A stretch of 64,000 bases of DNA from the NCBI GenBank assembly GCA_020354625.1, contig CP070651.1, positions 2,538,135 to 2,602,134 of the forward strand, given 5' to 3'. Origin of the DNA: Trueperaceae bacterium (lineage in GTDB: Bacteria; Deinococcota; Deinococci; Deinococcales; Trueperaceae). The notes beneath the pieces were generated by a model. That model searched no databases. It saw nothing but the letters and a program-made list of their open reading frames with translations, and was not told where the DNA came from. Position numbers and translations under genes: made by a program. Each line of letters starts with the position of its first letter. Positions within the stretch are counted from its first letter, which is position 1. Below are positions 8,513 to 35,620 of the stretch, one piece after another.

Positions 8513-8549
8513 CACAAACAATAGTGTCGTGAAATATAGCACATATAAG
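8513..8549 (+). promoter_or_regulatory. Copy S1 of the recurrent AT-rich motif (CACAAACAATAGTGTCGTGAAATATAGCACATATAAG); candidate promoter/operator between divergent dnaE and the tRNA-Cys/tRNA-Val pair
   Basis: Sequence match to the family described in the findings. It ends in the -10-like hexamer TATAAG about 90 nt upstream of tRNA-Cys and has an A-rich tract upstream. Confidence 0.45.
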
Positions 8550-8638
8550 CCTTCCGCTCGCCCGTCAAGCCACACCGATCCCGATCCCCCGATTCCGTTG
8601 ACACTTCTTCGAGCCGCGTGATACCCTTTTTAGCGCCT

Positions 8639-8713
8639 GGCGCCGTAGCCAAGTGGTAAGGCAGAGGTCTGCAAAACCTCCATTCACCGGTTCGAATCCG
8701 GTCGGCGCCTCCA
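8639..8713 (+). tRNA. tRNA-Cys (anticodon GCA)
   Basis: 75-nt cloverleaf. Acceptor GGCGCCG/CGGCGCC, anticodon loop CTGCAAA, T-loop GGTTCGAATCC, 3' TCCA. Confidence 0.9.
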
Positions 8714-8754
8714 ATCCCGATAGGGGACAGGTCGGACCCGATAGGGAGCACATA

Positions 8755-8828
8755 GGCGCGTAGCTCAGTGGGAGAGCGCTACATTGACACTGTAGAGGTC
8801 GGCAGTTCAATCCTGCCCGCGCCTACCA
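8755..8828 (+). tRNA. tRNA-Val (anticodon GAC)
   Basis: 74-nt cloverleaf. D-arm GCTCAGTGGGAGAGC, anticodon stem-loop CTACATTGACACTGTAG, T-loop AGTTCAATCCT, 3' ACCA. Confidence 0.88.
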
Positions 8829-8860
8829 AAGAAAAGCTGTCACAGACGGCGAAACGAAAA

Positions 8861-8884
8861 CCCCTCGAAGTGAGGGGTTTTTCG
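8861..8884 (+). terminator. Rho-independent terminator after the tRNA pair (CCCCTC-GAAGT-GAGGGG + TTTTTCGTT)
   Basis: GC stem followed by a T-tract. It also lies just past the stop of the convergent minus-strand DapA-family gene. Confidence 0.7.
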
Positions 8885-8959
8885 TTGGAATCAGCAGACC
8901 AACGGTTTACCACCTGGGGTGTGAGGGGATGTTTCGGCCCACGGCGTAGTCCGTTGTGA

Positions 8960-32469: not shown

Positions 32470-32510
32470 TCAACACACCTCCTACTGTAAAGTCTACTGC
32501 TAGAACACCT

Positions 32511-34004
32511 TCAGCGAGCGTTTCGCAGAAGGCCTCTCGGACCACCAAGGCCCTGGCGCAACGGTTTCGGATCGACTGCGTGCACCTGTGTCGCTGGCAA
32601 CAACACGCGAAAGAGGGTGCCTTTGCCGAGTTCCGACTCCACGTCGACGGTCCCCTCGTGCTGCTGCACGACCCACCGTACAATCGCCAGGCCCAAACCA
32701 CTACCGTTCCCATCGCCACGGTTGGTCCGGGCACCATCGACGCGGAAGAAACGGTCGAAAAGGTGCGGAATCGCTTCTTCGGGAATTCCGGGGCCGTCGT
32801 CGACGATCTCTAGACAGACCTTGTCTTTCTCCTGCCAGAGCGAGATATTTATCCGACTCGCACCAGCATTTATTGCATTTTGAACCAGGTTGTGAAGTAC
32901 CTGCTTGAGGCGTCCAGGATCTCCCATCACTTCTACCACCGGCTGCGGCGCAGTGACGGTAATCTCGGTACTACCCGCCACCGGCGCGATCTCCATGTGA
33001 ACCGCCTCCGCCACCTCGAGCAGGTTCATCGCCTCTTTCTGAATCGAAAAACCGGCGTCGGCGCGCGCGAGTTCCAACAAGTCGTTTACCAGCTTGGCCA
33101 TTCGCTCAGCCTCACGCCTGATCACCATTAGAGAATCGACCTGTTCCTGAGTCGGCGACGCACGCCTCAACAGATAGTTGGCGTGGCCCACGATGGCAGT
33201 AACCGGGGTTCTGAGCTCGTGACTGGCGTCTGCGGTGAAACGTCTCTGCGTCTCGAACGACTCCTGAAGACGGTCGAGCATGTTGTTCAACGTCACGGCC
33301 AGCTCGCGCATTTCGTCTGACGAGGCGGGGACGGGGACCCGCTGCGAAAGATCCCGGCTGGTAACCCGGGCAGCGGCCTCTTTCACGCGCTGCACCGGAC
33401 TCAGAACCTGACGGGAGAGCAACCACACCCCGAGCGCAAAGATGATAAAGGCAGCCACCACCGTGAAGCGGAGGTTGTTCGCCAACTGGTTCAATGTGGC
33501 GGCGACCCCACTCGCTGGGACACCGATCAACATCATGACCGAATAGCTCCGTTCTGGAGCAGGAATGGTGAGGGTACCGAGGTCACCCATTATCAGCAAT
33601 CGCTGTTCGTTGCTGAGTACGACCGTCGTCGTCAGGGTGCCCTCGTCGAGCAACGAAGTCAGGGCAGCATCCCCGATGGCATCGGGGATGTACTCATCGG
33701 TCGGGTTGGGACGCAAAGTATCGTAACGGGTAAACGGCACCCCAGAGCGAAGGTCGCTCACGCTGTCGGGCGTTGCTCCACCGGGTCCGTAGATGACGAT
33801 CTGGTAGTAAGCATCCCCCGGAAGTTTCTGAAGTCCCTGGATGATTGCGCCCTGGCTGATATCGAGAAGCGCCTGTCTACCGCGCTCTTCGAGCGAGGCG
33901 TTGAGCGAACGATCGGTCAGTGCGTACACAGCGAGCGCCACCGCAGAAAGCACGATCACGAAAAAGGCGCTATAGAAGAGCGTCAGGCGTACACGGAGTG
34001 ACAT
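32511..34004 (-). CDS. Sensor histidine kinase (two TM segments flanking a periplasmic domain, then HAMP, HisKA and HATPase_c)
   Basis: H-box ADASHELRTPVTAI. N, G1 and G2 boxes (NLVQNAINAG, DDGPGIP, GSGLGLAIV). Confidence 0.85.
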   Translation of the reverse strand: MSLRVRLTLFYSAFFVIVLSAVALAVYALTDRSLNASLEERGRQALLDISQGAIIQGLQKLPGDAYYQIVIYGPGGATPDSVSDLRSGVPFTRYDTLRPNPTDEYIPDAIGDAALTSLLDEGTLTTTVVLSNEQRLLIMGDLGTLTIPAPERSYSVMMLIGVPASGVAATLNQLANNLRFTVVAAFIIFALGVWLLSRQVLSPVQRVKEAAARVTSRDLSQRVPVPASSDEMRELAVTLNNMLDRLQESFETQRRFTADASHELRTPVTAIVGHANYLLRRASPTQEQVDSLMVIRREAERMAKLVNDLLELARADAGFSIQKEAMNLLEVAEAVHMEIAPVAGSTEITVTAPQPVVEVMGDPGRLKQVLHNLVQNAINAGASRINISLWQEKDKVCLEIVDDGPGIPEEAIPHLFDRFFRVDGARTNRGDGNGSGLGLAIVRWVVQQHEGTVDVESELGKGTLFRVLLPATQVHAVDPKPLRQGLGGPRGLLRNAR

Positions 34005-34013
34005 TTGGCTCGG

Positions 34014-34691
34014 TCATTCCTCCCGCAAGACGTAGCCTACACCCCTTACGGTGTGGATGAGCCTCCTCTCCCCTTCCCCCTCGAGTTTACGGCGCAAGTA
34101 CCCTACATAGACGTCGACCACGTTGCTGCCGCCAGTGTATTCGGGCCATACCTTCTCTTCGATCTCAAAACGGTTGAAGACCTTGCCTGGGTTACGAGCA
34201 AAAAGCTCGAGCAGTTCAAACTCTTTGGCAGAGAGTTCGATGCGGCGTCCGTCGCGAAACACCTCGCGACCGTCGAGATTCATCACCAGATCCGCCACCC
34301 GGACCTCTCCTGTCACCGCCGGATTCACCCGCCTGAGATGAGCACGAACCCGCGCCAATAGCTCCTCGATCGAAAACGGTTTGACAAGATAATCGTCAGC
34401 ACCGGAATCGAGACCGGTGACCTTATCGTCCACGCTGTCTTTCGCGGTCAGGATGATGATGGGTGTATTGCTGGTCTTGCGAATCCGTCGGGCTACTTCA
34501 AGCCCATCGAGAACCGGCAACATCAAGTCGAGTACTACCAGATCGGGGTTGAGCTCGCGGAACTTTGAAAGCCCGGTTACCCCATCGAAGGTTACGACCG
34601 TGTCGTAATTCTCCGCTTGGAGTTCGAGATCGATGAACTTGGCGATCTCCTTCTCGTCTTCGACTATAAGGATTAGCGGCATGCGCTCCAT
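34014..34691 (-). CDS. OmpR/PhoB-family response regulator
   Basis: Receiver domain (LIVEDE...D...K) and a winged-helix C-terminus ([13 protein letters not shown]). Upstream of the kinase in the same orientation. The start among several ATGs between 34682 and 34709 is uncertain. Confidence 0.85.
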
Positions 34692-34939
34692 AGCTGGATT
34701 ATGACTCATCCGGACAGCGGTGCTTGCCGCTTAGATGACAGCACACAAGCGTAGATCTGGTTCTCAAACCCGTAGCACCACGTTTCCGGGGCCTACGATC
34801 TCTATAGTGGCGTACGTACGGCCGCGGTAGAGCCGTCCCCCAAAGTCCTAGCCCTATCTTCGACACTACCATCACGCTCCAGTCGAAGGTTACACTACGG
34901 CAGGCGTTTCAAACGGTATGACATGCGAGGGGAGTTATT

Positions 34940-35461
34940 TTGCGTAAGCGTCTTGCACTATTTATCGACGGCAGCAATCTATACAACGGCATGAGAGAAA
35001 ACTTGTCCAACACGCGCGTGAACCTTCAAGAACTCATCAAGCAGCTCCGGCGTGAGCGCGAGCTGGTGAGAGCGTATTACTATAACGCTCCACTGACCGA
35101 AGACTACGACGAGGAGCTGCGTGAGGGCCAACAACGGTTCTTCGAGTCGTTGCGGAGAATTCCTTACGTGACGGTACGACTCGGACGCCTCCATCGACGC
35201 CAAGACGGCTCACTCGTCGAAAAGGGAATCGATGTGGCCATCGCAGTCGAGTCGCTCTCTCTGGCGTACGAAAATGCCTTCGATACAGCCCTGCTCGTGA
35301 GCGGCGACGGCGACTATGTGGAACTGGTGGAGGCCTTGAAAAGGCGTGGAAAGCACGTCGAATGCGCGATGTTTCGCAATCAGTCTGCCGGGATCTTGCT
35401 CGAATACTGTGATGTCTTTTTGCCCTTGGATGAGTTGGAGTGGTCACGGATCCTCTTTTGA
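34940..35461 (+). CDS. NYN/LabA-like domain protein
   Basis: Sequence LALFIDGSNLYNGMREN...GIDVAIAVESLSLAY...LVSGDGDYVELVEAL. TTG start with a GAGGGGAG ribosome-binding site. Confidence 0.7.
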   Translation: MRKRLALFIDGSNLYNGMRENLSNTRVNLQELIKQLRRERELVRAYYYNAPLTEDYDEELREGQQRFFESLRRIPYVTVRLGRLHRRQDGSLVEKGIDVAIAVESLSLAYENAFDTALLVSGDGDYVELVEALKRRGKHVECAMFRNQSAGILLEYCDVFLPLDELEWSRILF

Positions 35462-35578
35462 GATGCTGTCTCCAGCGACTCTGAACCCGTTATCTCGACC
35501 ATAAGGTGCCGTAGCGGCGCCGACTACCGATCGAAATCTCGCGGGCCGACCCCTGGCAGCCTTTGTCAGAGGCGGCCT

Positions 35579-35620
35579 AGTATAGTATTAGTGGATTATT
35601 TCACGATATTTTAGTTTGTG
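35579..35620 (-). promoter_or_regulatory. Copy S5 of the recurrent motif (CACAAACTAAAATATCGTGAAATAATCCACTAATACTATACT on the minus strand), just downstream of the ligA stop
   Basis: Same spacing as S1-S4. The -10-like TATACT points antisense to the NYN gene. Confidence 0.4.

Follow-up and report, generated by a model that had tools for sequence, protein, structure and literature searches.

A stretch of 64,000 nucleotides from the genome of a Trueperaceae bacterium (GenBank assembly GCA_020354625.1, contig CP070651.1), referred to here as the window, carries five copies of a short AT-rich element, S1 to S5, which are the subject of this work. An earlier note on this DNA had described them as a gapless alignment of intergenic sites with a CRP/FNR-like core, and their positions and strands were confirmed: S1 to S5 align without gaps and all five lie between genes. 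Each copy consists of an upstream block followed by three half-sites, A, B and C, the last two of which form the core (B-C). The window has a GC content of 54 to 67% per 1 kb and of ~59% overall, while that of the element is ~30%.

S1 (8503..8549, plus strand), composed of the upstream block and half-sites A, B and C with its B-C core at 8527-8542, lies in the divergent region between dnaE, whose start on the minus strand is the ATG at 8421, and the tRNA-Cys-Val genes; it scores 52.1 bits with the weight matrix introduced below and E=1e-7 in nhmmer. S2 (13505..13551, plus strand; core 13529-13544; 54.6 bits) lies between two minus-strand genes, with the stop of one (13598-13930, 110 aa) on one side and the yebC start (13404) on the other, and is oriented opposite to both. 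S3 (21246..21293, minus strand; core 21252-21267; 48.2 bits) stands divergently to a truncated Cof-type HAD gene (ATG 21331), 50 bp upstream of it, and heads a decayed stretch ahead of a lipoprotein gene (22222-22587) and aspS (22754-24529). S4 (29147..29194, minus strand; A 29179-29184, B 29164-29169, C 29152-29157; 53.7 bits) sits 26 bp past the priA stop (29220) and 55 nt ahead of the smpB ATG (29096), in the same orientation as smpB. S5 (35586..35632, minus strand; core 35591-35606; 49.5 bits) runs over the stop codon of ligA (35625-35627), in the space between ligA (minus strand) and the NYN gene (34940-35461, plus strand), which converge, and is the sole copy in the window without a gene start on either side. 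Among the neighbours, PriA, LigA, NYN, YjeF_N, DnaJ, a MerR/HspR-like protein, SMC, a Xer-like recombinase, an amidase and the truncated Cof-type HAD were confirmed with Pfam, and YebC was assigned by its N-terminal sequence together with a syntenic TACO1/YebC gene in a Trueperaceae relative (locus L063; loci in other genomes carry L numbers throughout).

The separation of these copies from the surrounding sequence is very sharp. When a weight matrix made from 16 family members was run over both strands of the window (128 kb), S1 to S5 scored 48-55 bits and the next best position, a self-overlap of S4, scored 2.7 bits. Nothing lies between these values; the family is sharply bimodal in score, and the element is discrete and not the tail of AT-rich noise. 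The degenerate 30-bp pattern CACNNNNNANNNTNTCGTGAAANANNNCAC, which has 17 fixed bases, matches exactly five times in the window and gains no further site at <=3 mismatches, against 0.12 in dinucleotide shuffles, and the core TCGTGAAANNNNNCAC has 6 matches at <=1 mismatch where 1.18 are expected. The agreement of S2 and S4 at 19 of 21 core positions was likewise borne out. Three sites that had been put forward as weaker relatives (S0, S6 and S7) score -25, -13 and -16 bits and are not members of the family. The last of these, S7 (42610-42660, -16.5 bits), is an AT-rich spacer ahead of a Mur ligase gene (42677-43975) and contains TATCGTG and ATAGTGAAAT in another arrangement; it could be a degenerate or a different site. 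The Mur ligase gene heads a long run of plus-strand open reading frames (ORFs) with an FtsQ-type POTRA protein at 50496-51170, and the run from 42677 is probably a cell-wall and division cluster, as judged from the Mur ligase and FtsQ-type checks only.

Pooling ~25 copies from the window and its relatives gives a detailed picture of the element. It is ~45 bp long and reads RRYAAAAWWT, TTCACGA(G)C (half-site A), N8-10, TATCGTGA (half-site B), N6 and nCACWWA (half-site C); written as the pooled consensus, this is RRYAAAAWWT, T-CAC-R-nn-C-WWW-nn, TA-TCGTGA, WWnWnW and n-CAC-W-W-A. The word TTCACGA therein occurs three times, forward in A, reverse in B and forward again in C, where it is often reduced to CAC. 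The spacing of B and C is identical in all ~25 copies and gives the dyad TCGTGA-N6-nCAC, in which GTGA and TCAC are inverted at exactly 6 bp. A perfect form, TCGTGA-AAAATA-TCACG, is present in Meiothermus silvanus (L076:6143), while in the family as a whole the right arm (C) has T at its first position in only ~45% of the copies. Between A and B the spacer varies in length: the window copies and many relatives have 9 bp, M. silvanus, Calidithermus, Marinithermus and one of the L081 copies have 10 bp, and a further L081 copy has 8 bp. GTGA is preceded by C in every copy, with no T or G variant in the window; the copies from elsewhere were gathered using patterns taken from the window. The A-rich tract that had been noticed upstream is real and extends the motif: the block RRYAAAAWWT (-10 to 0) is conserved although it lay outside every search pattern, with A at -7 in 18 of 19 copies. 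Similarity breaks off sharply at about -12 and +35 (~47 bp), and the flanks are unrelated. A weaker second copy ahead of pdxT (L071:304-345, nhmmer E=1e-4) has good half-sites A and B and no CAC at C, and the element can therefore decay from its C end. A mini-ORF within the element, GTG-AAA-TAA, was considered and dropped, as it is not conserved.

Searching other genomes with the strict pattern yielded little. Across 185,579 species genomes, one per species and with the source genome outside the collection, there were ~60 matches as against ~70 expected by chance on a rough estimate, and the only real family members among them were those of a Meiothermus metagenome-assembled genome (MAG; L056) and an uncultured relative (L001). 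Matches in ten Photorhabdus species, one locus each (L006, L007, L009, L016, L017, L025, L033, L039, L052 and L058), were rejected: the profile search placed six of them at chance level (E ~0.2-0.5), and the ten are presumably one conserved orthologous sequence unrelated to the family. Scanning metagenomes with a relaxed pattern was more productive and gave 10 loci, nearly all of them GC-rich contigs with the same AT-rich island. Copies in the smpB neighbourhood were found in a Trueperaceae relative (L063/L064), in M. silvanus DSM 9946 (L076) and a related metagenome contig (L077), as well as in Calidithermus chliarophilus (L078), Marinithermus hydrothermalis (L080) and an M. granaticius-like contig (L081). 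In total there are ~25 copies, in Trueperaceae and Thermaceae. Family members have nhmmer E values of 6e-11 to 1e-4, and the chance matches selected by pattern in the genome scan have E>=0.006. The 20-kb locus of Thermus sp. CCB_US3_UF1 (L079) contains no copy. In C. chliarophilus, the region upstream of smpB (L078:9600-9950) holds tandem-repeat runs of the GATGGTC/GATAGCC and ACGCAAA types and an assembly gap instead of the motif.

A comparison with the corresponding intergenic regions of related Deinococcus-Thermus genomes, which the earlier note had suggested, revealed copies at orthologous places in Trueperaceae and Thermaceae, and we regard this positional conservation as the strongest evidence that the element is functional. 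The genomes that share such places have SmpB proteins only ~75% identical or belong to different families. The clearest case is smpB itself, which has a co-oriented copy upstream in the window (S4) and in L068, L063/L064, L071 and L076/L077, while the gene on the opposite side of the copy differs (priA, peptidase M20, pdxT or aspS). The aspS gene has an upstream copy in the opposite orientation in L056, L069, L074 and L076, and in M. silvanus (L076) one copy is common to the divergent aspS and smpB genes. S3 is the counterpart of the L074 copy, in the same orientation ahead of a homologous lipoprotein-aspS pair, from which it is separated in the window by ~0.9 kb of decayed genes. A Cof-type HAD gene is preceded by a copy both at S3 and at the M. 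silvanus-type site L076/L077:6143. The counterpart of S2, called T1 (L063:6397), lies 40 bp from the stop of a homologous small gene, with a DUF4384 gene as its other neighbour where the window has yebC. Two further genes, ligA and dnaE, recur as neighbours at different gene ends (S5 versus L067, S1 versus L001); for example, the L067 copy is upstream of ligA and S5 is at its 3' end. In other relatives, the neighbours include smc, the cox operon and an E1 dehydrogenase gene, the last two in Thermaceae (L081). For every copy except S5 and T2, a second copy in L063, there is a gene start no more than ~150 bp away on one side or both; the distance to the nearest start is 26-111 bp, and the orientation relative to it is roughly half forward and half reverse.

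Sequence comparison within these orthologous sites is also informative. The M. silvanus smpB copy does not differ between L076 and L077, with several changes in its flanks. Between S4 and L068, all six of six substitutions fall at degenerate positions of the element, and the next 107 bp, reaching into smpB, differ once. The near invariance of the 54-nt spacer between S4 and smpB (29097-29150) relative to L068 indicates that this spacer has a constrained function of its own, for example as the smpB promoter or 5' region.

Multiple intergenic copies could also be produced by a miniature mobile or repeat element spreading through the genome, and the presence of the motif does vary among relatives: S1 has no counterpart in the dnaE-tRNA spacer of L063, and the 20-kb locus of another Trueperaceae (L061) has no copies. 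However, the abrupt ends of similarity at ~-12 and +35 are accompanied by neither terminal inverted repeats nor target duplications, at degenerate positions copies within the window show no greater likeness than those of other families, and no copy was found in IMG/VR (phage) or PLSDB (plasmid). With positions that are orthologous across two families, we consider a mobile origin extremely improbable.

A more serious alternative is that the element is itself a promoter firing forward, with the A-tract as an UP element and a start a few nucleotides past CACWWA, either dependent on a transcription factor or of an unusual core type. It would drive smpB, give the tRNAs a second promoter, and yield small or antisense RNAs at S2, S3 and S5. 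There is something to be said for this: the composition changes sharply from AT to GC directly after CACWWA, the A-tract is where an UP element would be for a start near +40, a gene start in the same orientation lies 26-110 nt downstream of 8 independent copies, and TATCGT, at element positions 13-18, conforms to TAnnnT as seen in local -10 boxes (TACCCT, TACACT), with RRYAAA exactly 17 bp upstream. The TATAAT-like hexamer that had been seen at the 3' end, however, is really CAC-W-W-A; no register gives a 3' hexamer with a conserved last T, no TTGACA-like -35 is found at the right spacing, and a sigma-70 consensus scan of positions 8000-22000 found no promoter at S1 to S3. Moreover, about as many copies face the 3' end of a convergent gene or point away from the nearest start (S2/T1, S5, L056, L066, L076:6143, L080 and L081), and the invariant triplets CAC, CGTG and CAC far exceed what a sigma factor needs. 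Promoters of the ordinary kind are readily recognized in this DNA, those of tRNA-Cys, tRNA-Pro and the RNase P RNA in the window being canonical. Other promoter readings made by eye failed on conserved positions or spacing, namely a -10 in the 3' hexamer, a -10 in TATCGT paired with a -35 in RRYAAA, a -35 in half-site A or in B' (TTCACG), an extracytoplasmic function (ECF)-type AAC-N16-CGT, sigma-54 spacing and promoters on the reverse strand.

The individual genes point the same way. S1 had been noted to point at the tRNA-Cys/tRNA-Val pair, but these genes have their own sigma-A-type promoter separate from the motif, TTGACA-N18-TACCCT (8598..8627, plus strand), which is kept in L063:2600-2640 without a copy of the motif, so S1 is not needed as a tRNA promoter. 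Similarly, aspS (L056, L076) and the L001 lipoprotein gene each have a -10 of their own beside the start. For S4, a leaderless arrangement 7 nt before an smpB TTG had been suggested; the window SmpB is 100% identical to a 143-aa protein of a Trueperaceae MAG, which bears out the Deinococcus-Thermus affiliation assumed in the earlier note. The length of that protein puts the start codon not at the TTG at 29141 but at an ATG, 29096 (MLRN...), which lies 55 nt past the motif. A candidate smpB -10, TATGAT, can be read from the sequence on the minus strand at 29105..29110, 7 nt before the predicted start; if it is used, transcription would begin ~3 nt before the smpB ATG and the centre of the B-C dyad would be at -61.5. 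Neither the strong housekeeping promoter with UP element and -10 nor the family of small-RNA or antisense promoters that the earlier note had offered is supported, since there is no -35/-10 pair, the orientation is mixed and the distances range over 26-111 bp, and on balance we think it rather unlikely that the element is a promoter. Elsewhere in the window, a bacterial class A RNase P RNA gene lies at 38975-39333 (295 bits), where the ORFs called across it are spurious; its promoter just upstream is of the extended -10 type, TTAAAG-N17-(TGc)TACACT.

On the reverse strand, the inverted repeat formed by A and B together with the T-rich block might act as a weak intrinsic terminator or RNA hairpin closing the upstream gene. 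The reverse orientation predominates in co-directional gene pairs (S2/T1, L056, L066, L076:6143, L080 and twice in L081, versus smpB and smc), and by our own reading the A/G variation at position 4 retains pairing, as G-C or G-U, only in reverse-strand RNA. In addition, a terminator-like hairpin of the 110-aa gene (13551..13566, minus strand), found by a terminator scan, abuts S2, and its T-rich tail is supplied by the reverse complement of the S2 3' end. Against this, the stems of the element are 6-8 bp and AU-rich with loops of 9-10 nt, folding gives minimum free energies from -1.7 to -15.7 kcal/mol (z-scores +0.5 to -2.3, mostly above -1.3), and at the 50-70 C at which Meiothermus and Marinithermus grow such a structure is implausible. 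Copies with T at positions 21-22 (T2, L073) show no compensatory change, the bases that directly follow the stem are A and not U, and S1, S3, S4, L070 and L071 have no upstream gene on the reverse strand. Rfam gave nothing at the gathering threshold or at E<=1, and the only hit of the terminator scan is the hairpin beside S2. A terminator function is therefore in our view very unlikely.

The element could also be the site of an architectural or chromosome-organizing protein (nucleoid-associated, ParB/Noc-like, a roadblock or replication-related), its nearness to the same genes reflecting no more than inherited position. A very long and information-rich site, the placement of S5 between convergent genes, functionally heterogeneous neighbours and a density of ~1 copy per 10 kb where copies are present all fit such a role, as does the flip in orientation from plus (S1, S2) to minus (S3 to S5) within the window. 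The half-site CGTGAAA(T) also equals half of parS/NBS-type sites. The parS sequence TGTTTCACGTGAAACA, a 16-bp palindrome, has 0 matches at <=3 mismatches in the window, however, so that only the half CGTGAAA is shared; nor does the window hold a dif-like site (0 at <=3 mismatches, nothing with at least 17 of 28 bases), and its GC skew is weak and noisy. Copies are confined to intergenic DNA near gene starts, and the orientation switch is lost on rearrangement, with T1 and T2 in the same orientation in L063. We know of no such architectural protein in the phylum, and judge this explanation unlikely. A related idea, a terminus or Ter site suggested by the orientation switch between S2 and S3 and the Xer-like recombinase at 19611-20609, was discarded on the absence of a dif-like site in the window, the weak GC skew and the synteny of the recombinase in all relatives.

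The recombinase (19611-20609), labelled an integrase at first, contains a SAM-like domain and a catalytic tyrosine-recombinase domain. As Trueperaceae, Meiothermus, Calidithermus and Marinithermus all have it close to smpB, smc and hisS, it looks like a Xer-type housekeeping enzyme and not a prophage integrase. From this gene to aspS, the window (20610-22750) is a decayed stretch that includes the truncated HAD gene (21331-21699, matching Hydrolase_3 positions 1-91 of 255) and out-of-frame HAD and amidohydrolase-like fragments. Its first 620 bp (20610-21240) have no convincing ORF, and hisS, which is syntenic in relatives, is missing at 20610-22750. Just downstream of S3, a direct repeat, GAGCGCCAAAGAAG, occurs in 2 copies 8 bp apart (21150-21200, minus strand). 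Further upstream in the window, an A-over-T skew of 0.23-0.29 extends across 15-18 kb, where the ORF at 15490-18879 is SMC; the skew probably reflects the composition of the SMC coiled coil.

Of the functions that had been suggested for the element, an operator of a global regulator with a CRP/FNR-type core fits best, given the fixed dyad in ~25 copies, the orthologous housekeeping genes in two families and the core sites in Thermus thermophilus described below. On this sequence evidence, S1 to S5 may be copies of a composite ~45-bp operator of CRP/FNR-like geometry, conserved in Deinococcota and used by a putative global regulator, a reading to which we give about even weight. We infer protein binding, the family of the protein and an effect on transcription, be it activation or repression, from the form and placement of the sites. 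In the mechanism that we propose, a dimer of the global regulator would sit on the B-C dyad in the manner of dimeric winged-helix CRP/FNR-type proteins. The invariant C before GTGA would serve as a discriminator base that separates the binder from those of its paralogues that bind TGTGA. Half-site A together with the A-tract would offer a second contact tolerating +/-1 bp, made either by a further subunit or by the RNA polymerase alpha subunit's C-terminal domain. Bound 25-110 bp upstream of start codons, the protein could then modulate neighbouring, often leaderless, housekeeping promoters, including those of smpB, aspS, the Cof-type HAD gene, yebC and dnaE in the window and those of smc, the cox operon, the E1 dehydrogenase gene and ligA (L067) in relatives.

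Several observations weigh against this operator reading. Measured to guessed transcription starts, the dyad centre is at -61.5 for S4, ~-53 for the L001 and L076 smpB copies, -67.5 for L071 and -85 to -92 for aspS, so these distances do not appear to be constant; as the other copies give no constant distance, the -61.5 at smpB, the classical class I position, is suggestive only. A TAnnnT for class II activation, 30 bp downstream of the dyad, is absent. No CRP/FNR or Rex gene was found in a scan of 20 window proteins. The information content, with three half-sites and a block, is far above that of ordinary CRP sites, and since half-site A has no partner half-site, a simple dimer model is insufficient. 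In every copy C precedes GTGA, where CRP, SdrP and Rex prefer T, and the affinity of the T. thermophilus CRP/FNR protein SdrP is lowered 25-fold with G at the base before GTGA (PMC8465061). Part of the apparent invariance, that of the C included, is moreover circular or imposed, because the copies outside the window were fished with window patterns. Finally, S5 lies between convergent genes with no promoter there to regulate, and the neighbouring genes have no obvious common physiology.

One may go a step further and ask whether the copies mark an undescribed regulon running through the phylum Deinococcota (Trueperaceae and Thermaceae), in which a 45-bp tripartite operator (TTCACGA three times plus the A-tract block) has long been kept ahead of housekeeping genes of translation and replication (aspS/smpB, the tRNA operon, yebC, dnaE, ligA and smc). 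Such an operator would be bound by a CRP/FNR paralogue whose discriminator is specific for C, for example of the T. thermophilus TTHA1567 type, or by a new multi-subunit DNA-binding protein. We put this forward as a tentative idea that could well be wrong. If the operator reading is right, the element belongs to an undescribed global regulatory circuit in Deinococcota that links trans-translation (smpB), aminoacyl-tRNA synthetases and genes of replication and segregation. This can be tested in culturable relatives, and M. silvanus DSM 9946, with a single site between the divergent aspS and smpB genes, offers a textbook case. A motif of such high information could also be used to annotate promoter regions in uncultured Trueperaceae, and it would be a natural example of how paralogous CRP/FNR-type regulators might stay apart through one discriminator base and an auxiliary half-site. 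General principles are left unchanged by the finding.

How does the element compare with systems that are already known? A number of described sites can be set aside, since the DnaA box, IHF sites, the NrdR box, the PurBox, the ARG box, the Cheo/SOS box, H-NS nucleation sites and T7-like promoters each fit only part of one copy or half-site. Repetitive extragenic palindromic (REP) sequences and the bacterial interspersed mosaic elements (BIMEs) related to them, miniature inverted-repeat transposable elements (MITEs) and the small noncoding repeats known from Deinococcus have in common with the element that they are short, present in multiple copies and confined to intergenic DNA. Unlike such repeats, the element is AT-rich instead of being a GC-rich palindrome, lacks terminal repeats, is orthologous across two families and has variable positions that are not homogenized. 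With sigma-70 promoters carrying an UP element it shares the upstream A-tract, the AT-rich island in GC-rich DNA and the intergenic location beside gene starts, but not a TTGACA/TAnnnT pair at 16-18 bp, and its orientation to genes is mixed.

The Rex operator (T-Rex of Thermus) is the 18-bp palindrome TTGTGAA-N4-TTCACAA; the left arm of the element, TCGTGAA, is one base from TTGTGAA (6 of 7), and the overall spacing is equal. Some Thermaceae copies (L081) also stand ahead of genes of energy metabolism, the cox operon and the E1 dehydrogenase gene, and a related T. thermophilus site lies before TTHA0425. However, the right arm of the element (nCACWW) rarely fits TTCACAA, its C is invariant, it has a third half-site and an upstream block, and most of its neighbours (smpB, aspS, dnaE, ligA and yebC) are not genes of redox or energy metabolism. 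A phylum-specific case is the radiation/desiccation response motif (RDRM), a 17-bp palindromic operator of DdrO in the radiation/desiccation regulon of Deinococcus (PMC5552922). Compared by description, it resembles the element as an operator-type motif with variable upstream positions and DNA-metabolism genes among its targets, but it is a single palindrome at radiation-induced genes, whereas the element is asymmetric, in three parts over 45 bp, and next to other genes.

The closest likeness is to the operators of CRP/FNR proteins (E. coli CRP with TGTGA-N6-TCACA, SdrP, DdrI), which like the element have inverted GTGA and TCAC arms, a strict and A/T-rich 6-bp spacer and A/T-rich flanks, lie upstream of or overlap promoters, and commonly occur in tandem. 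In Deinococcus radiodurans, for instance, DdrI binds TGTGA-N6-TCACA, with two sites at most target promoters (PMC4868304, PMC11253593). The element differs from these operators in having C and not T before GTGA and a right arm that is often just CAC, in its obligatory third half-site at 8-10 bp and RRYAAAAWWT block (~45 bp in all), and in that no fixed placement at -41.5 or -61.5 can be demonstrated. That single bases can matter is illustrated by Mycobacterium tuberculosis, in which individual discriminator bases in a 16-bp core motif decide which CRP paralogue binds (PMC5758884). For SdrP (TTHA1359), with the consensus AWTGTRA-N6-TYACAWT, changing the 6-bp spacer by one base abolishes binding (PMC8465061). 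The same study lists T. thermophilus HB8 genomic sites of this core type: AATCGTGAAGTTTATCACATAT at -64 of TTHA0953, ATTAGTGAAACTTTTCACGATT upstream of TTHA0987 and TAAAGTGCTTTATTTCACAAAA upstream of the NADH dehydrogenase gene TTHA0425 (PMC8465061, Table 2), the first of which is protected in vitro by SdrP (PMC8465061). Among the HB8 sites, AATCGTGAAGTTTATCACATAT and, as read on the reverse strand, AATCGTGAAAAGTTTCACTAAT carry the core ATCGTGA-N6-TCAC as in B-C, the unusual C included. Three HB8 sites have the B-C core in all, and the reverse complement of TAAAGTGCTTTATTTCACAAAA, which is TTGTGAAATAAAGCAC, is one base off the core of S2.

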